From positions 682,121 through 746,120 of the forward strand of contig NW_019217785.1 in the NCBI RefSeq assembly GCF_002571385.2: 64,000 nt of DNA. The letters run 5' to 3'. Made by a program: the position numbers and the translations under genes. How positions within the stretch are numbered: position 1 is the first letter of the stretch; each line of letters starts with the position of its first letter. Below, one piece after another: positions 6,541 to 21,093 of the stretch. The notes under the pieces are model-generated. The model had not been told where the DNA came from. It made no database searches and was given only the letters and a program-made list of their open reading frames with translations. This DNA is from Stylophora pistillata. Its lineage: Eukaryota.

Positions 6541-9500
6541 TTAAAACAACAAAGCACTTGCATAATCAGTAGAATCTGTGAAGCCTTGTCCTTCATCAGC
6601 ATATTTTATCTCTGAATGACCCTCACTAGCTGTGATATCACTTTTATCAGCCTGTTGTGGAGTTGTCACTTGGTCTTGAAAATGACCTCTCATTTGCCCT
6701 ATTTGCTTTTCCATATTGACCAGGGCAGGAGGTTGATAATTTTGCAAGGTTTTTAACTCCCCAAAGCCATTTCTTTGGTAATCGTCATAAACAGCTACAG
6801 CAGTTTCTTCTGAAGGATAGTCATGTATGGTGTGTGTGCTCTTGAAAGAAACTCTCACTTTGTTCACCTGAAAATTTAAGTAATATTGTTTCTATTAACA
6901 TCTATGTATATGTGCACGATCCTTCGCAGTAAAGCACTATTTGAGCAATAGTGAAAATCAGACCTGAAAAAAATTTCAGGCCTGTACGGGATTCGAACCA
7001 CTGACCTCTGCGATACTAGTGCAGCGCTCTACCAATTGAGCTAACAAGCCAACTGGGAGCAGGCCATCAAATTAATTCGACATAAACCCGTAGATGATAA
7101 ATCAAACAACAACAAACATATGAAACATATGTATGAACTGCAGTTCATACATATGGTTCATACATAATTAATTTGATGGCCTGCTCCCAGTTGGCTTGTT
7201 AGCTCAATTGGTAGAGCGCTGCACTAGTATCGCAGAGGTCAGTGGTTCGAATCCCGTACAGGCCTGAAATTTTTTTCAGGTCTGATTTTCACTATTGCTC
7301 AAATAGTGCTTTACTGCGAAGGATCGTGCACATATATGTTTCATAACCGCAGTTCATACATATGTTTCATATGTTTGTTGTTGATTAACATCTATGCTAC
7401 ATGTGTGACCTACCATTGTCAAAAAAAATTTTGTAGCTTAATTAAGTTACAAATACATGAAAATGTGTGAGTGCTTCTTATCGGTAATCCCAACTCATAA
7501 TTCATAGTCTACAATCAATGTCAACTTTTTGAAAGTGTAGTGTGGTCGCCTGGGTGAGTGTAGTCCTGAGAAGGACTGTTGTTGGTGGTGGTGACTGACG
7601 TTTCAACAACCTGGGCAGAAGTCTTGACTCCAATGATGACTTCCGCCCAGGTTGTTGAAACGTCAGTCACCACCACCAACAACAGTCCTCCTCCAGACTA
7701 CACTCACCCAAACGATCACACTACACTTGCACGTGTTACCCCCGGGTTCAAACCATTTACTGCAGAATGTAAACTTTGTACAAGGTTTTGGATTAATCAA
7801 TTTGCTTTCAACTGCTGAGGATGCTGAAATTTTCACTTGTATACTTTGCAATTGACAGTCGCAACATCTGATCAGAAAACTAAAGACGCCATTTTCTTAA
7901 GTGTATATTTCAAACATACATGTACACTGCGCCTTGACAGTTAATAATGATTATGACTTATCAATTCAAGTTCTTAGGAAAGAGAAATGAAATGTTTTTT
8001 AATAACATGGTAGTTAAAACAGATATAACAAAAAATTGAAAAAGAATTTCCCTTTACTGAGAATCACTGGTAATAGTGAAATCAACATCAAATTCTGAGT
8101 AAAAGTTATTATAATAGTTAGGTCATCCCAACATGTACTGAATTTCAAGTGACAAGCTGTCTTATTAGTAATTATCTGTGTTTGACATTGTAAAAAAAAG
8201 AAGCCAACATTTGTATTTCAATATCACTGACTTTTTTCTTCTCTTGGTAAAGTAATGCAGGAGGGCCATGTTTGATATTTGCAGAATATTTGATGTAAAA
8301 TGCAGTTCTTGAAGATTTAACCACATTATGAATGGTGAGCAACAAAAGGAAGATTATTTTTAAAAGTTGGTTGGTTCAAGTTTCCATAATCTGAAATCAT
8401 GAGTGAGCATCCCTTTGAGGTCTCATAAAAAGGAAAAAAAAAAAACACAAAAGCAAAATGATCAAACTTAACACATGAATTCCATTCATTCATCAATGAA
8501 TATTAATGAAATACAAAAATTTGCCGCAAAATTAATTATAGTGAAAAAAGCCACAAAATTTTTGACAGACAGTGGATGCTTCTTTGTTAAAATGTTTTTC
8601 TAACTTATTAATAATTAGCATGAACTGAAAAAAGTATTGAGAATCCTTTTCAAAGTAAAAAATTCTCCCTAACTTGAAAGTTGAATGAAGATCCTGCCAA
8701 GAACATGTAAAAAATATGAATTATTTACATCACTTTAAATATTCATTACTGACAAAACAAGGCAGTGATATTCAAAATGATTTCCTCTTGCATGATTTAA
8801 TTATTTTTTCTCAATGTCAAATACATTTCATTACTAATTAAAACTTTTAAATTGCCACTTGAAATTTTAAATAAACTGGGATGAACTACAGAAATGGATA
8901 TTAAATTGTCTTCTGTCAACAGATCTCAGTCTGGCAACAACAGTCTTGATTTTTTCTCACATCATTAATATAACTTGGATTGGTTTCTACCAAGGAGAAA
9001 ATTAATAAGTTCTTTTCTTAGTTTTGTTGGCATAACCATGAAAAGCTTTTCTTACACAATGAACATTTTAAGTTAGACAAACACAAACACCAAAAAATGA
9101 AGAATACACCAAGGAAGAATTACAAACTTTAAGGTTAAAAAAGGCAAATATCGACACAGTGATACAAACGATGAACTTTGTATGTTGAAAATGAATTTTT
9201 CAAAGTAAAAAAAACCCTGATGTAACTCACATAATCCTTCAGCTCTCATGATTGATTAAGACAGAATTTCTCCTTACAATATCAAGCAAACAAGTGGTGA
9301 GGAGAAAGAGAAATATCAGTTTGGGGTTAGTACATGTAGTTGACCCAATATCAATTTCACTGAACTAAAATCAAAAGAATTATTTAGGAGACAGAAAGGA
9401 GAAGTACTACCAAGATCTTGGGAGTGAAAGGGTATATAAAATGGACCGAGTCTTACCCTCCTTCTCTCTGTCTTTGGACTTAAACAGGACTTTAACTGAA

Positions 9501-12500
9501 CAGGCTCTGAATCAAAGACCACTTGGGGTACTGAATACTGTGGAGCAGCTCCAATATAAGATATAGGTACATCTTCTTCAGTCTCGTCTTCCTCCTCTTC
9601 TTCTTCCTCTTCATCCTCAGAAATGTCACCATTAACTAAGTGTGTCACTTCACCTGTGGCAAAATCATAGCTTCCTTCCACATCATCTGTATCACTACCA
9701 TCAGAAAGCTCATCTGTTTCCAAGTACCCACCCTGGAAGGTATTTGTCTGTTCATTAATAATAGGTGAAGGCACATCAATCACTGAAACACTAACATCAT
9801 TGCCAGTGTGTTCCACCTTTCCTTGGAAACCATTCATAAAAGAAACATTTTGGGCACTATGGACATCAGGAGAAGGGGGGACATCAATCACAGATACAGT
9901 AACATCACTATCCTGGGGCAACTCTGGAATGTCAATGGCAGATACTGGCACCTCATCAATTGATGTTATTGGAACTGACTCACTCATGCTCCTTTCCACT
10001 TCTGAACTCTGTGAATTTCCATTCCAGTCCTGGGTCTCAACAGCTGGAGCACAAGTTTCAACTCTTTTTTCCTCTGTTTTTGAATGGTTCACTTTCCTGG
10101 CAGACATCTCCTTTTGCTCTGGTGCAGAAATCTGAACACTTGGCTTTGGTTTCTGGTAAACACCCATTGGAGGTGTGTTGTCATGGCTTGCATTGCTTAT
10201 TATCACAACATTGCCCACCAACCGCTGCTCCATCTTTCCAGTCTTGCCTACTGGTCGCAAACCATGAGAAGAAAGGGATACTGTTTCACAATTATCATTT
10301 GGAGGACTACTACTATTCTTCTGATATTTGTCCATAACCTCTTTCGTTTTAAGGCTTGCTGTGCTCTCTTTTTCCTTGCTATTCTTTTTCATCCAAGGGA
10401 AAATGGACTGCTGTTTCTCCTTCTGCCCTGACTTCACCTCTGTCTTGTTAGATCTGTTAAAGAGATTGGATTTCTTGCTATCAACTTTGTTCTCTGATGA
10501 GCTTTTCTTGCTTGATTTCACTGGAGCATGGGACCTGTCCTGATTGTTAACTTTGTTCTTGGATTTTTCTTCATTTGCACTCTTGTCTTTCTTATTTGGT
10601 CTCCAAACACTGGAACCAAATAATGCTGACAGTTTGTGAACAGAACCTTTGGCTGGCTTGACCTGCTCAAAAGCTTCAGTAGGCTCAGGGTCTATGGGAG
10701 TAACTGGCTTGGTCTCAACTACAGGCAAAGTCTCCATTTTCAGCATTACTGGAATTGGTTCTTTGACACTGTCCTCCATTTGGACAACAGAAACTTTTGA
10801 AACACATCCTAGGGTCTTGTCCCCTTCTGAATCATCTACATCTGACTGTTGAGATAATTGCTGATGAAGAAGTTCTGTCACCCTGTGTTCAATGTCACTT
10901 GAAACACTGCGCTTTCGGGCAAATACTGGTTTCATGTCTTGGTCTTGTGAATGTGTAACTGCTGGCAAAAACACATCATTTTCTTTTGGTGTAGATACGT
11001 GATCAGTGGAAGTGATTTCATTCTCAAATGTGCCATGTAAATATGCCTCACTTATAGGGTCATCTTCACTTGTTGAGTCTGATTCTTCATCATCAACAAG
11101 CAACAGGTCTGACACAGATGCTCTTCTTATCAGCTTGTTAACACGGTGTTCAATCCCATGAGCAACATTTGATTTATGCTGAAAGCAGTCATTACTTGCG
11201 TCTTCTCTAACATCAATAAGTGATGATGATTTGCCTCTTTCAAGACTGCTGCTTGGTGAAGACTTCTTGCCAGTGTCACTTCTGGGAGAAAAATTTGTGG
11301 CTCCATCATCAGTCCATGGTGACACCACACTCATGACATCTGCTGTCCACCTCTTTGTAGGACCAGGGGGTCTCTTTGGCAGACTGTTAGCCGATGAAAG
11401 GGTTGATTTAGTGTCACTACAAGGAGACAAACTTGACACACCATCATCATCATCATCAACTGGTTTTGACATCAAACTTAAGACATCTGCTGACCATCTC
11501 TTTATGGGAGGCGCAGGTCTCTTTAATTCTGCAGACCTACGTATAACACATTCCTGTTCATTCAATGGTGCAGACTGATTGCCTCTCAGAAAAAGATTTT
11601 CTTCAGATGGGGTCCGTTTTCGAAAACCACCCACTGCACCAAACTTACTTCGCAATGACTCAATAGAGCTTGCATTGAAAATGTCATCTGCTTTGAGAGT
11701 TTCAGATTCATGTGGAAGTTGAGAAACATTGTTTATAGTGGCATTAACAAATTTTATATCTATATTATTGGAAGGAATTGATTCTTGTTGACTTTTTCCT
11801 TCAATCAGAATGTACTTTTGATTCTCTAGATTTTTGTCAGACTTAAAGGATTCCACTTCCCCTTTCGAGTCTGCATCCTTGACAAGTAAGTATTTCTGTA
11901 AACTTTGCTTCTGTGGTACAATTGTTTTCTCAGCACATGTTTGTACAGCTTTTTCTCTCTGCGAGTCCATACAAGGTATGACCAGATCACTGTGATCATT
12001 AAACTTGGTTCTCTGTGCCTGCTTATCAACACTGTCAAAAGCATGCTCTCCTTTAGAATCTAGAACCACATCTTTCTTGTGATCTGAGTTGTCAAAATTC
12101 TTTGAAGCACTGTGTACGTCAAAAGCATGCTCTCCTTTAGAATCTAGAACCACATCTTTCTTGTGATCTGAGTTGACATTAGCTACCAGTAAGTCTTCCT
12201 TACCGGCCAGGAAAGCAGAATTTGTCGATGCACCATGTTTCAACCAAGGAGAAGTAGCGACGAAATTTTTGTATGGTTTAGGGGCGACAAACGGTATTGC
12301 AGAAGTTGGTTTTCGTCCAATCGAGTCTACGGGCAAACTCGATGAATTCTCTGTGTCGGAGATTGATTGTGCATTGTCTACGGCACTTGTGGTCAAAATT
12401 TGCAATTGCAAGGAAAGTTGATGTGATTCGCCATTAGCAGCACCTAATGCACTTTCTACAGTCCTCTTGTCGCTTAGTACACGGGCTCTACTTTCAGTGT

Positions 12501-13194
12501 TTTTGAGGAATAGCGGCACGTTCGTTCCCCCGTTTATTTCTGGTTTCGAATGTTCAAACATTCGTCGATAGTTGGGAACAGATGGTGTCTTGACGTGCTC
12601 AATGTCGTTGCCAGGGTTTAAAACTGAAGAATTAACATCATTCGAACTCGCTTTTAAATCTTCTCCGTTCGCAATAGCTTTCGATTGTTGGGAACTTTGC
12701 TGGTTACTTTCGATCTCTATTCGAGTGCCCAGTTTGTTTGGTTTGTGTTCCAGTTCTGTCGGAATCTCAACACCTTTGGTAACACAACTATTTGTGTCTG
12801 CGGGGCTTGAACACAATGCAGGACCACCCTGGCTCGCGTAAATATCGGTTAAAATAATTTTCTTCTTGTCTTCTTCTCCATTCTTGACAACTGGCTTGCA
12901 GCTTGAATTTAAGACCAGTGTATTAGTCTGTGATGCCTTACGTACAATCCGTGGACCAAACAAAGTATTGACATGTAAGGCTTGTTCCTTAGTTTCCGGC
13001 GAATCGATGGTACTCTCCTTTTTTTTTTCTAGCAGCGATCGCTTCCACTCTGGGATAGATGTTTTGCGAGATTTCTCTTGTTCGAGCTTCTGTCGCTGGT
13101 CTTGCTCCTTTCTCTTCTTCTTCTCTATCAGTTCTACTTTCCATGCCGGTAAAACGGTAGTCATATCGAAAGATTTATCCTTGGTAATGGACAA
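6541..13194 (-). CDS. Taperin/phostensin (TPRN/PPP1R18)-family PP1-regulatory, probably actin-associated protein, ~1354 aa, 2 exons
   Basis: Exon 1 13194-9457 (donor AGG|GTAAGA) and exon 2 6867-6541 (acceptor TTTTCAG|GTG), phase 0. N-terminal LPAWKVELIEKKK and IPEWKRSLLEKKK motifs, a poly-E tract, then LKSCL...KVRVSF (RVxF PP1 site)...HDYPSEE, and C-terminus DYASALLF*. This matches the taperin layout (MPAWK.E.LERK...KISF...FEYPSE...PALYF*). Confidence 0.8.
6894..7396. mobile_element. tRNA-like-core repeat element inserted as an inverted duplication (perfect 171-bp arms) with 13-bp TSD
   Basis: TSD ATTAACATCTATG at 6894-6906 and 7384-7396. Arms 6907-7077 and 7166-7336 are exact reverse complements; the insert ends in a (TTG)n-like tail. 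Confidence 0.85.
7193..7264 (+). pseudogene. tRNA-Thr(AGT)-like cloverleaf inside the repeat element (identical mirror copy at 6979-7050, - strand)
   Basis: GGCTTGT/ACAGGCC acceptor stem, GCTC/GAGC D-stem, A-box TAGCTCAATTGG, loop CTAGTAT, B-box GGTTCGAATCC. The T-stem has 2 mismatches and the anticodon stem 1, so it is repeat-derived rather than a canonical tRNA. Confidence 0.7.
7533..7761. mobile_element. Penelope-like-element-derived palindromic insertion with degenerate minimal hammerhead core
   Basis: ~90-bp imperfect inverted arms span 7533-7728. The centre GACTCCAATGATGACTTCCGCCCAGGTTGTTGAAACGTCAGTC resembles the CTGANGA...GAAAC hammerhead of PLE pseudo-LTRs, but the CTGA is mutated. 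Confidence 0.65.
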
Positions 13195-16067
13195 CCTGTT
13201 TGTATAATTATTCAGCGACCGGCGCTTATCGATTCAAGATATAGCAAAGCTGTTCCATGCTTGACAGGAATTTTTCTGTTATAGTGAATCCTTTAGAAAA
13301 CTCTAAAACTTCCTTAATGCCTGAAATCTCTCGACAGTTCCAGCGTAAAGGGATTACGAATTGACGCGACAGTTCCCAGAACCGCGACTAACTTTGCTCA
13401 TGCTCCGCGAAGCATGGAATTGTATCGATGATGTCACACGGTTAAATAAATATTTGAAGCAGGCACTTGAACAGGCCATAACACTCGCTGATTGGTGATA
13501 GCAATCGCTTGGCCGGCGCCCGATTGTTTGCCACAAATTGTATGAAAATTTAAAGCTTTTTATGTACAAAAGCCTATTGGATTAACATCTCCACAAGCGC
13601 TGCAGGAGATTTAATTGTTTACAGTGCTAGCACTGGATTTCTTTAGTGAAAGCATGCAAATTTTCTAACTAGATGGGAGTAAAATCGACTATCGGACGAG
13701 TTCTAAATATTATGCATGGGGTTCTCGAAAGGTTTGCACAAAAGAAAAGATTCGGAAATACATGATGAATAGGTGTTACTTGTCCATCGAGGCAAAAAAA
13801 AAGGAAAACTTTCCAAAGTAACCCTATTTTTAGAGTTTGTCAGAAATTGAACATCTTCGCTCATCTCGAAAATGACTTTTACACATGGTTTTACATTTGA
13901 GAGCAAGCAGAAATGGATATTACTTTGCATAATAGCCAAGTGTCAAAACAAACTTTATTTATCTAGAAAATCACTTAAAGCGATCTTAATCTTCTTTAGA
14001 AACAGCTAAGTTCTGTACAAACTCGACGGAAAACGATTCTACTATTTTCATGCAAATTACTTCCTACCAAGAAAGCCTCTTGCTTAGAGAATTAGGACAT
14101 CATTATTTCGAAACGAGTAATATTGAGCAGAAACTTTAATTCTGTGAATCAGCAGTATAAATATGGCATCTGACTCTTACACAAATCGATAATAGCTGCC
14201 TTCTTGCTGCAGGACTAATACTGCTTATGGCCATTATGCTTTATCGGCAGCCGGTTTCAGTCTCCCGTCTCAATTCTTTGTGGCCTACGGAAGCGATGTT
14301 TTAATAGACATACCTTGCCACTTGTAACTTGCCTTATAGGGCAGATTAACCACCCAAGAGACCAATAAACAACTCACTAAAAATATTGTTTGTGATCAAC
14401 AAGTCACAAGGAATTAAGAGTCACTTTATTAGCAGTACATTATCACACTATCATTGTAAAATTTGCATGCACGTCAACGTCTGATATTTGAGTGATTTTT
14501 TTTTCCTTTGATTTTTGCTACAGGTGCACTTACTCAGCCCGATATATGTGCAGGAATTTTGATTGACCACTCAACAGAACCCAAAGGAAATTCGTCACGG
14601 TCACCACAAGTGCTTGAATTTTAACGCATCTGTGCACAGAAATAATAATTTTAATGAACGACGTGCGTCACGAGTATTTTAAACAACCACGCCAACCCCG
14701 GCTATGTTAGATGGTTGCTTGTTCTCCGACTATGCAAATATTATGATGGATTTTAGTCTTCTCCTCCTGTTTTGTTCTCCACTTCTACTTCATTTTGACG
14801 AGAATTGAAAGGCATCTATGGTTTAACAGCAAGGCAAGTTTGGTCAAGTCTATTCGACGGGACGAAATTTGTCACTTAGATTTTCTTTTTTTTTTTTCAG
14901 ACAACTTTCAATTACCCTCTATTTCTATTCTCTAACAATAAAATACATAAATAAATAACAAAAAATATATGCATTAATTCAATCATCGTGTTATATCTTT
15001 ACAAATTTTTGTCTGACAGGAGTAAATAAAAAAAACTGAAAATGTCCTTTAAAATGCTTTGGGCAGGTTTGCTCCGTAACTTATAAAAGGGAATAAAATC
15101 TAATACCATGGGAAGATCATTTTGACCTGTTATAGAAGTGATCCTTCTAAAATTTTCTTAAGGACTTAGTGCTCTGAAGTCTCTGAAGAATGTTTCATAA
15201 GCTTCGATCGCTCAAACCGTTTTGCATAAGACGAATAGACGTCCACCGGAATGCCCGTCGGTGAGCAAAATTCGCGACACTAGGAAATACCCTTCTGCAT
15301 CTCCGAAAACGGGAGCGTGTTGATTTAAACTTAAAGAATGGTCACCTCAGGAATAACGCCTTGCAAAATTTTCAATTGATTGTTGTGAAACATGGCCTGG
15401 GTACTCGCGGCGACCAATCGGAACAGAGAAAAATCACACGGAGCCAATCAAATCTCAACAAGAAAACAAAGAAACTACCCAGAGCGCGGGAAGGCACGAT
15501 TGGTTTTAGTAGTTACACATCTGATTGGAAGAGAGGGAGACGCGATTCATATAAGACCATTCAGAGTGCGTAGTGAGGTAAAAACTTAAGTAAAATACTG
15601 CATTCATTTCGACACCAGATGGAAAATTGCCCATAAGGGATATAATTATCTACGCTATACATATCGGTTATCACAGACCTTCTTAGATCACCACCCAGAC
15701 TGCGAGCGAAGTAGAGGCGCAGGGAATTGAACGAAAACAAACCCAGGTTGCCTCGCCTGACCAAATAAGCATATTAAAGCGGCTGTTAACAGACTAGCAT
15801 GAGGTAGGTTAATAATTGACTCAGTGTTATAGATTTGTCTGTTCGCTGCTCAGTCGTAGTACAATTTCAAAATTTAATTGTATCTTTTTTCCCACACTCC
15901 TCCCTTGAGCGAATGAAAACGTAGCGTGATGCTTCTTCGTGTTCGTCCCGTGCTGTGATCGTAGATGAAAGAAAAACCAACTATCGCCCATTTTTTTTTA
16001 TTTTTTATTAAGACGCCGATCTACGTACTGTTCACTATCTGTGTACGGTTACTTGCTCTAGAATGTC

Positions 16068-19700: not shown

Positions 19701-21093
19701 CACAAAACAATCTTAACTGGCATGGAAATTACGATATAAAATGTAAATTGTTTAACTGTCTGAGTAACATTACTTACCAACATCTCTCACAAGTCTACAT
19801 CTTGTTAACTCGCCACATTTTGCAAATATCTTGTACACAGTTCCTACAGGGAAATAACAAAGGGAGGTGGTATACAAACAATAAAACCTCAGTATCATGA
19901 CTATGGAAAAAGTTCTGCAAGTACTGCACTTTTTTTTCACTTATTTTCTCTGCCTGACTATCTTATTTTCAATTATATAATGTTTATCAAATATTACTGA
20001 TGAATGTAAACTACCATTAACCTTCAGTTTCTCTCTTTGTCAGAAAATATTATAATTTTGGATATTTCTAACCTTCACTAGTATCCTTGCTTAATTTTCC
20101 AACAAATAAAGTGCTGTCTGGATCACCATTTACTCTTTTGTTTGGCTTATCTAGAGAAGAGAAGATAAAAATTCATCTATCATCTATGTTGATGTCATAT
20201 GTAACTGTCCTCAAATGAATCATGACTAAGAACTAATCATGATGCATGTATTCACTCTGACAAAGGGCTAATGCTTGAAACATCAGCTTTTTAACCTTTT
20301 AAGGTGGCCAACTTACAAATTCAACTTATGTATGGTGCACGATCCTTGCAGTAAAGAGCACTATTTATGCAATAGCGAAAATCAGACCTGAAAAAAATCA
20401 GGCCTGTACGGGATTCGAACCACTGACCTCTGCGATACTAGTGCAGTGCTCTACCAAGAGCTAACAAGCCAGCTGAGAGCAGGCCGTTAAGTTGATTCTT
20501 AATAAACCCGTCGTGATAAACCAGATACGATGAATATATGAAGTTCATATATTTTGAACTGCGGTTATAGATACATATGATGTACAATCCTCGCAGTAAA
20601 GAGCGCTATTTATGCAATAGCGAAAATCAGACCTGGAAAAAATCAGGCNNNNNNNNNNNGCGCGTGGAGTACAGGTAGGCGCGTCATAGATGACTTCAAC
20701 TTGTGTGGCGATTTGAAATCTCTTGTGGAACGATGTGACGATGTTTTGGAACGTTGTGACCGAAACTTGGAACGAACTGACTTGGAACGAAATGACCATA
20801 GAAGGACCGGAGACCGACTGAAACCAAAACAAACTTGAAGCTGGCAAAACAAACTTACAAGCAAACCTTTCTACGTAAGCTGCCTTTCACCAGATGGCAA
20901 TGAATAGTGAATCAAACTTACATTTTGCAAGCATCGCACGGATCACTGCCTTATCATGTGGCACTGTGTCAGTTCCATCAATGCTGCCAGCTTGTAAAGG
21001 GTGGTAAAATTTTGCAAGTGGAGACCAGTTGTCCCAAGTAGGAATTTCGTAGCCCAAATCTGTCGTGGTAACTTGTTCCGTGACTGATTCCAT
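16790..21093 (-). CDS. SNRNP35: U11/U12 small nuclear ribonucleoprotein 35 kDa protein (RRM + R/D/E-rich tail), 326 aa
   Basis: Exons 21093-20922, 20150-20073, 19843-19778, 18848-18778, 18698-18608, 18204-18129, 17216-16790 splice in frame: [32 protein letters not shown]...[12 protein letters not shown]...[19 protein letters not shown]...[34 protein letters not shown], then an RD/RE-rich tail. Confidence 0.95.
17889..17995. repeat. Minisatellite, 8 perfect copies of 13-bp AACAAAATGACTC
   Basis: Units start at 17889, 17902, 17915, 17928, 17941, 17954, 17967 and 17980; no spacers. Confidence 0.95.
20251..20327 (+). mobile_element. Penelope pseudo-LTR remnant (degenerate hammerhead motif)
   Basis: CTCTGACAAAGGGCTAATGCTTGAAACATCAGC, followed by ...GGTGGCCAA, homologous to 48185-48245. 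Confidence 0.55.
20328..20648 (-). mobile_element. Head-to-tail tandem copies (period ~245 bp) of the same tRNA-like-core repeat, running into an assembly gap
   Basis: tRNA-like core at 20401-20470. The segment GCAGTAAAGAGC...GAAAATCAGACCTG recurs at 20348 and 20593. Clearly homologous to 6907-7100. Confidence 0.8.

Follow-up and report, generated by a model that had tools for sequence, protein, structure and literature searches.

The window, i.e., the whole stretch of 64,000 nucleotides of Stylophora pistillata DNA that was analysed, carries a 477-bp insert (6907-7383) enclosed by two copies of a 13-bp target site duplication (TSD), ATTAACATCTATG (left copy, 6894-6906; right copy, 7384-7396; both read on the + strand). 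A 13-mer common to both ends occurred in just 7 out of 20,000 random 477-bp spans. The insert is composed of two arms of opposite orientation, the repeat unit of which is numbered from the first base of its tRNA core (q1). The left arm (6907-7145, - strand) runs from q153 to q247 and continues from q1 to q144, where it stops at the 'short' one of two fixed 3' ends; hence, a tail-to-head junction lies inside this arm, as had been claimed from the sequence alone. The right arm (7166-7383, + strand) runs from q221 to q247 and from q1 to about q191, stops at the 'long' fixed 3' end, and carries a one-sided tail of approximately 48 nt. Both arms are 5'-truncated, and the inner junction between them (7136-7165, +) holds a short fold-back piece (q153-179). 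Two identical tRNA-Thr(AGT)-like cores were retrieved with ARAGORN on opposite strands (7050-6978, -; 7193-7265, +, q1-73), and the Rfam tRNA model scores the core at 48.9 bits. Both contain A and B boxes, located at 7200-7211 and 7244-7254 in the right core. The latter core also harbors a palindromic hexamer (q31-36; 7223-7228) for which, together with the adjoining bases (7223-7230, +), pairing with its counterpart in the following unit is predicted, in the form of a bulge-helix-bulge-like junction. Downstream of it on the + strand are hairpin H1 (q67-92; 7259-7284), formed around a T7 run (7270-7276) that resembles a Pol III terminator and predicted to hide the 3' strand of the acceptor stem; hairpin H2 (7290-7308), three pairs of which covary between families; and stem H3 (7313-7318 with 7348-7353) followed by hairpin H4 (7358-7374), together spanning 7313-7374. 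The short end falls within the H3 loop and the long end comes after H4. The insert, its TSD, the opposite cores with their boxes, and the three stems were all found as the sequence-only reading had described them. A third, older copy of the family, which belongs to another subfamily and is partially tandem, is cut by an N gap (20327-20648, -).

The monomer of this tRNA-cored repeat measures 247 bp, as seen in a perfect array (L031), with variants of 244 to 251 bp. It is abundant, with 8,398 exact matches of a 25-mer from the core in the 398-Mb genome (the reversed 25-mer, used as a control, matches nowhere), and it occurs in hosts other than S. pistillata too. Perfect arrays reach 11 to 12 units in the assembly, and the head-tail joint was also seen in contigs of DNA reads. 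Two samples of loci were used, namely the loci with the best BLAST scores (L001-L050), a sample in which young perfect copies are favored, and the full set of loci from the first 100 pattern matches on two contigs (C1 and C2; L051-L090), which is unbiased as to score, yet chosen to hold q22-46. These were complemented with 30 older copies and with 120 metagenome stretches from several assemblies, for which the search pattern contained fixed parts of q37-76. Assembly N gaps interrupt the arrays at recurrent positions, and ends beside N were left out of the end counts. Inner ends recurring at q166 (and q139) were considered as a fixed 5' end and rejected, since they are the edge of such gaps. 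Poly(A) RNA contigs of three studies hold the unit, a kind of contig that cannot reveal ends, strand or circles. A search of viral contigs for the unit gave no matches. As to its tRNA of origin, a tRNA-Ile(AAT) motif gave no match; a tRNA-Ile(GAT)-type gene (L308) resembles the core, as judged by eye only.

The ends of the insertions differ in nature. Among the 75 outer 3' ends of the unbiased set, 37 are located at q140-154, 25 at q186-202, and 13 elsewhere, so that 62 fall in two windows. These two fixed ends lie about 48 nt apart and usually occur one per arm; indeed, 21 of 31 head-to-head insertions combine a short and a long end. Inner 5' ends (n = 73) scatter across the unit, with at most three at any single position. 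The unit of about 245 bp anticipated by the sequence-only reading is confirmed in size but is not permuted at both ends, and the dispersed breakpoints that it predicted hold for the inner ends, not for the outer ones. A TSD of 12-17 bp with at most one mismatch flanks 23 of the 31 head-to-head insertions; when all 49 insertions of this type are taken together, 33 have a TSD of at least 10 bp, of which 31 measure 12-15 bp. Similarly, elements of the same genome that encode a reverse transcriptase and a GIY-YIG domain (Pfam) have TSDs of 11-13 bp and tails on one side only, about 35 and 90 nt long, and a small neighbor of the insert (7530-7765) displays this same anatomy. Hallmarks of Penelope-like elements (PLEs) are partial tandems, an inverted truncated arm, a one-sided tail of 30-40 bp and a variable TSD (PMC8557442), and the inverted 5'-truncated arm, one-sided tail and variable TSD that characterize non-autonomous PLEs were found in the unit insertions. 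Given the TSDs, the fixed outer ends, the scattered inner ends, and the same anatomy in local elements with both domains, the unit is very probably mobilised by a Penelope-like reverse transcriptase/endonuclease, which bears out the Penelope-type insertion of tandem and inverted multimers that had been suggested. Among 50 GIY-YIG loci (150 of 1,590 candidates scored), none proved to be an autonomous PLE that has sequence in common with the unit or bears it as a terminal repeat; an independent unit insertion adjoins a PLE in one case (L120), and a 55-bp scrap of the unit was present in another (L133). Among the unit loci, no PLE open reading frame ran into an arm.

An ordinary tRNA-derived SINE (SINE2) was rejected as an explanation. 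Although the unit possesses, at the sequence level, the internal A and B boxes by which SINE2 elements are recognized, its 5' end is not fixed at the head of the tRNA, as only 2 of 73 inner ends lie within q244-q4; the earlier remark that its 5' end is not that of a normal SINE is supported. A tRNA-headed SINE family of the same genome starts at or near the tRNA, occurs without tandem or head-to-head copies, and has lost its fold, a cloverleaf being detected by ARAGORN in none of 17 loci. A Helenus-type TRIM, which has two direct LTRs and a TSD that is short and of fixed length, was ruled out by the head-to-head arms and the TSDs of 12-15 bp.

The arms of one insertion have a common history. 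Rare alleles were common to both arms in 17 of 28 arm pairs, versus 89 of 1,592 control pairs from the same subfamily. Furthermore, in one insertion (L069), 9 to 10 private alleles were fixed in all five full units, in both arms and on both strands. This sharing of private alleles fits repeated copying of one template. The change from an aged monomer to a homogeneous two-armed array is explained most simply by a circle that is copied round from two priming sites, and the template for reverse transcription was probably a circular RNA. The same outcome could result from a linear source array that was itself homogeneous, from gene conversion between the inverted arms as the source of the shared alleles, or from smoothing by the assembly. 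Some arrays are mosaic or heterogeneous, or have a two-unit periodicity (L038 and L311), and array interiors in a gapped assembly may be mosaics.

The tRNA core is under selection. Two representatives of young subfamilies differ at none of 48 non-ascertained core positions versus 41 differing columns outside the core (p = 3e-5). In addition, the core accounts for 3 of 34 inherited alleles, i.e., those present in both arms, all three at q59, versus 24 of 89 differences between arms (p = 0.03). The covariation that had been called for as a check was obtained in part. In a set of 27 copies, taken both from this genome and from other hosts, the acceptor pair 7-66 covaries (UA in 14, AU in 12) and three H2 pairs are altered on both sides; H3 and H4 were marginal (16-85 of 500 shuffles), and H1 did not rise above shuffles (118 of 500, percent paired). 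The stems tolerate G-U intermediates. Although pairing between A31 and C39 is impossible in the monomer, both bases are invariant, being found in all eight family majorities, and C33 occurs, together with G34, in seven of these eight. The T-stem of the young family contains two mismatches, its T-arm having a predicted probability of at most 0.13, and a run of six to seven T residues follows every core. A functional tRNA gene array was rejected as a candidate, since U33, 31-39 pairing and an intact T-stem are lacking; C33 combined with a GGT anticodon, as in the widespread form, is not that of a normal animal tRNA. In support of the suggestion that the unit is free of ribozymes, Rfam found only tRNA above noise in the units, and a strict hammerhead core was absent from both strands of a unit trimer, the PLE control being detected. 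The hammerhead pattern, which misses degenerate motifs such as that of the neighbor at 7530-7765, gave one stray match in a single degraded metagenome copy. An HDV-like fold was dismissed too, as by eye the nested P2/P3/P4 order is lacking and Rfam finds none.

The young family has ACTAGT at positions 31-36 of the core (109 of 112 copies), where the old families, both local and from metagenomes, have ACCGGT, the palindrome being preserved through a double change. The loop CCGGTAT was present in 87 of 118 metagenome copies and in 9 of 19 old local copies, the remainder consisting of scattered variants. Position 33 can pair with 34' in all 27 aligned copies (CG in 19, UA in 6, UG in 2). The evidence on the palindrome amounts to a single compensatory event, which separates two states of the family; CCGG includes a CpG, so that changes there are cheap, and CTAG is what an ordinary tRNA with an AGN anticodon has at 32-35. 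A few insertions (L312, L316, and L317) carry palindrome-breaking alleles in adjacent units or in both arms. Variants at adenines number 74 at A34, 37 at A31 and 21 at A37, the excess at A34 being mostly changes to G, and in one insertion (L315) the arms differ in the base at position 34. A change of A34 to G keeps G-U pairing, and wobble tolerance and inosine editing both fit, so that these counts decide nothing.

In the predicted fold of the monomer, the 6-nt palindrome is located within a 9-nt loop. When an RNA extending from q1 through the whole core of the following unit was folded without constraints, q1-7 paired with q66-72 of that following unit, with a probability of 0.97-0.98 in all eight units, because H1 captures q67-76 of the first unit. 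This two-core fold also swaps the anticodon stems, so that the palindromes pair with each other between bulges of 3 nt. This pairing reached a probability of 1.0 in the widespread-family majority sequence and of 0.61-0.92 in five of seven young variants; the other two (V11 and V12) folded mostly unswapped (0.09 and 0.26), and two degraded metagenome dimers swapped with a probability of only 0.15-0.17. In this majority sequence (4 + 4 copies), every arm is formed (0.96-1.0; 0.98 for the acceptor, 0.96 for D and 0.99 for T), so that the predicted tRNA body around the intron is complete in the widespread family; in the young variants, the T-arm is unformed. Single substitutions in silico abolished the swapped pairing, and a compensatory pair restored it. 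Addition of a 70-nt trailer led to loss of the cross-unit acceptor in all ten dimers; this helix is predicted to form only when the RNA ends at the second T-run. In circular monomers, the predicted probability of the acceptor helix was 0.0 in all eight units, H1 taking its 3' strand. These folds suggest that a two-core transcript is a pre-tRNA, the 'intron' of which is exactly one unit.

Such a pre-tRNA would be a candidate substrate for the tRNA splicing endonuclease (TSEN). For the metazoan enzyme, a C-G proximal pair that is conserved, a bulge of 3 nt at the 3' site, and a spacing of 6 nt between this pair and the end of the exon have been described (PMC6614914), and the canonical register of the unit (C32:G35', bulge 36'-38') displays all three by sequence. 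Folding favors a 6-bp helix with bulges at 37-39, shifted by one pair from the canonical register (4 bp, bulges at 36-38), and fully paired or over-paired helices lower the yield of tRNA intronic circular RNAs (tricRNAs; PMC6614914). Furthermore, animal TSEN needs the tRNA body and its cut position at 37/38 is fixed (PMC10485636). The host genome encodes genes with the catalytic TSEN domain (tRNA_int_endo) as well as RtcB genes. Long inserts have been circularised in cells by HARBOR, which combines a human pre-tRNA scaffold with some, not all, archaeal bulge-helix-bulge (BHB) motifs (10.64898/2026.10.12.758436), and the monomers of retrozymes are closed by RtcB (PMC7229834). A precedent for activity confined to dimers is provided by tandem-repeat hammerheads, which have a palindromic loop and are active only as a dimer, i.e., the same logic as proposed here for the palindrome of the unit (PMC4209133).

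The following route can be envisaged. A transcript would begin at one tRNA core, using its A and B boxes, pass the first T-run and end at the next; alternatively, the RNA would derive from read-through of a host transcript. As a T6-T7 run follows each core, most Pol III transcripts should stop within the first unit, and only read-through or host transcripts would reach a second core. H1 would block the acceptor stem of the first unit, the 5' half of which would pair with the 3' half of the next unit. The resulting pre-tRNA would possess a one-unit intron and an anticodon-intron helix made of two palindromes, with C32:G35' as the proximal pair and bulges of 3 nt. Cleavage of both 37/38 bonds by TSEN would release the 247-nt 'intron', the ends of which RtcB would join into a circle, in which H1 would give protection from RNase P and RNase Z. 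The PLE enzyme would then cut its target with a stagger of 12-14 nt, and priming on the same circle, at about q194 from one DNA end and at about q145 from the other, would yield head-to-head, variably truncated, multi-unit arms. The step in which host TSEN and RtcB excise and circularise one unit as a template for rolling reverse transcription is possible and is proposed tentatively, on the basis of the predicted folds. Taken as a whole, a PLE, a circle and host tRNA splicing in place of a ribozyme may be the best explanation of the data, with a confidence that falls a little short of even. No footprint was detected at 37/38, as none of 73 inner ends lies at q35-41 and genome counts show no step across it (8,796 versus 8,398). 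Such a missing genomic trace is expected for a circle, and equally so if no cut exists.

If the template were linear instead, the PLE would copy read-through multimers or jump between templates, the core would be a Pol III promoter, and the palindrome would be incidental. Intact A and B boxes next to a decayed T-stem in the most successful family would be in line with this, as would the heterogeneous or two-unit-periodic arrays mentioned above and the lengths of complete arms, 41 of 67 of which do not exceed one unit in the unbiased set (26 do). Moreover, PLEs produce partial tandems with no circle known to be involved (PMC8557442). However, a Pol III transcript would end at q78-84, without the priming sites at q145 and q194, and 5' ends are not piled up at q1. 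Neither the private alleles that are fixed over whole arrays nor the compensated retention of the acceptor and anticodon stems, which contrasts with the lost fold of the local tRNA-headed SINE, would be expected, making a linear template rather unlikely.

The palindrome might also be a kissing-loop signal, comparable with the dimer initiation site of retroviruses, that brings together two templates or two reverse transcriptases, the RNA being circular or dimeric and cut by another nuclease or an unrecognised ribozyme. The predicted exposure of the palindrome in the monomer loop, the preference of the dimer for a 6-bp core instead of the 4-bp BHB core, and the two priming events required by head-to-head arms speak for such a signal. 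It is nevertheless unlikely, as the shared private alleles indicate one template rather than two unrelated ones, the cross-unit acceptor helix and H1 would be left unexplained, and the searches for ribozymes retrieved nothing but tRNA and no strict hammerhead core.

RNase P and RNase Z leave 5'-phosphate and 3'-OH ends, which are unsuited to RtcB. This weighs against the monomerising step of the sequence-only reading, in which one of these enzymes would cut each cloverleaf of a multimer into monomers that are then circularised. Cuts at both ends would in addition drop the tRNA from the template, and inner 5' ends do not pile up at q1, with only a weak accumulation at q71-77 (4 of 73). In its favor, the acceptor stem has remained intact and includes one compensatory pair, and circularly permuted tRNAs of algae are cut from circles by RNase P and RNase Z (PMC3978253). 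Both enzymes read the acceptor/T-arm half (PMC3978253), and the T-stem is broken in the young and most abundant family. H1 is predicted to hide the acceptor stem and to remove its helix wherever a trailer is present, for which reason cleavage by RNase P or RNase Z is not supported and is regarded as very unlikely; tRNA splicing by TSEN and RtcB at an anticodon junction formed by the dimer appears to fit better. Finally, amplification without reverse transcription, as a satellite, a MITE-like or fold-back DNA repeat or a tRNA gene array, might produce perfect arrays of 11-12 units with hairpins that act on single-stranded DNA, but is highly improbable in view of the dispersed arrays flanked by TSDs of 12-15 bp, the asymmetric fixed ends with random inner truncation as in local PLEs, the tolerance of G-U intermediates, and the non-canonical C33 and GGT anticodon of the widespread form.

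If the proposed route through TSEN and RtcB is true, tRNA splicing and tricRNA biogenesis would be linked to retrotransposition, a host protein pathway could stand in for the hammerhead in retrozyme-type elements, and the unit would be a natural long-intron TSEN substrate resembling engineered scaffolds for circular RNA. Leaving the TSEN step aside, the young insertions, which number in the thousands and have two fixed priming sites and arms that share a template, record the poorly understood integration of PLEs. The family may also inflate the tRNA counts of coral genomes, in one of which 6,951 tRNAs have been predicted (PMC12005167). A search of full-text literature returned no description of the unit family or of a TSEN-dependent mobile element; Repbase and Dfam lay outside this search, and the family may well be present there as an unclassified or SINE/tRNA consensus. 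The nearest literature includes the coral CMITEs (PMC2872659) and a sea-anemone repeat library (PMC12070523), the available text of neither of which describes the unit family.

Several known systems resemble the unit in part. With tRNA-derived SINEs (SINE2), it has in common A and B boxes in a tRNA-derived segment and a high copy number; it differs from them by the absence of a fixed 5' end, its tandem and inverted insertions, and the retention of a full cloverleaf. Helenus and Cassandra TRIMs (PMC10886601) similarly hold a small-RNA gene inside the repeat of a non-autonomous retroelement, inflating tRNA-Thr predictions, but these are of the LTR type, with a primer binding site (PBS) and a polypurine tract (PPT), are mobilised by LTR retrotransposons, and lack head-to-head arms and a one-sided tail. 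With tricRNAs (PMC6614914) and circularly permuted tRNA genes, the unit shares its predicted TSEN geometry and predicted circularisation by RtcB, and a tandem transcript of an intron-containing tRNA has been cut in vitro by an archaeal endonuclease (cited in PMC3978253). Those are cellular tRNA genes, however, whereas the unit itself is intronless, the following repeat being the would-be intron, and its circle would serve as a template for transposition. PLEs and their non-autonomous derivatives have partial tandems, an inverted 5'-truncated arm, a one-sided tail and a variable TSD in common with the unit, the tail of which is longer (about 48 nt versus 30-40 nt in PMC8557442) and which contains neither an open reading frame nor a hammerhead. 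The unit also resembles the non-LTR retrozymes of animals, i.e., non-coding tandem monomers of 150-450 bp with long TSDs that are abundant in corals and for which PLE-driven rolling-circle copying of RtcB-closed circles has been proposed (PMC7229834; 10.64898/2026.07.22.740005). Monomer size (244-251 bp), tandem arrangement and TSDs of 12-15 bp are shared with these, and it is possible that the unit represents a ribozyme-free class of retrozymes that parasitises tRNA splicing, the RNA being its own tRNA intron, and that has spread across corals. In any case, the unit is real and abundant; as a ribozyme-free tandem element, it behaves like a non-LTR retrozyme, yet lacks the type I hammerhead by which that family is defined and has a conserved tRNA fold in its place.

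In two arrays of the 247-bp tRNA-cored unit elsewhere in the genome (L311:1816-2523 and L038:1997-3280), alleles recurred in every second unit, hinting at a template of two units. Both arrays adjoin assembly gaps and may be assembly products. In the head-to-head insertion at a further locus (L315:1048-1624), one private allele was common to both arms, its opposite-strand halves. At unit position q34, within the anticodon palindrome (q31-36, counted from the first base of the tRNA core), both arms carried a non-reference base, which differed between them, a pattern that could arise if a modified base were misread.

The window contains another small head-to-head element (7530-7765), 133 bp right of the 477-bp insertion, with a 12-bp target-site duplication (TSD; one mismatch) and a tail of 34 nt on one side only. 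Judged by eye, it resembles a degenerate minimal-hammerhead end of a Penelope-like element (PLE); the strict hammerhead pattern had no match in this element. Among the 50 GIY-YIG (PLE) loci sampled (L091-L140), six or more young families of PLEs were represented; these have motifs resembling hammerheads 3' of the ORF and family-specific tails (approximately 35-95 nt). More small palindromic or inverted repeats occurred in the window at 34611-34793 and 25059-26153, around which a search retrieved no TSDs. The minus strand contained a stop-to-stop frame of 1,305 codons (9318-13233), one end of which lies approximately 1.9 kb from the insertion; it is probably a long host exon.

By eye, the core of the 247-bp element looks similar to a minus-strand tRNA-Ile gene (L308:961-1035) with a GAT anticodon, which is unusual in animals for this tRNA. 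As a control for the element, a tRNA-headed SINE family (17 loci, L291-L307) was used; this distinct family has its tRNA at the head, a fixed 5' end, a long body common to the copies, and a non-palindromic loop.
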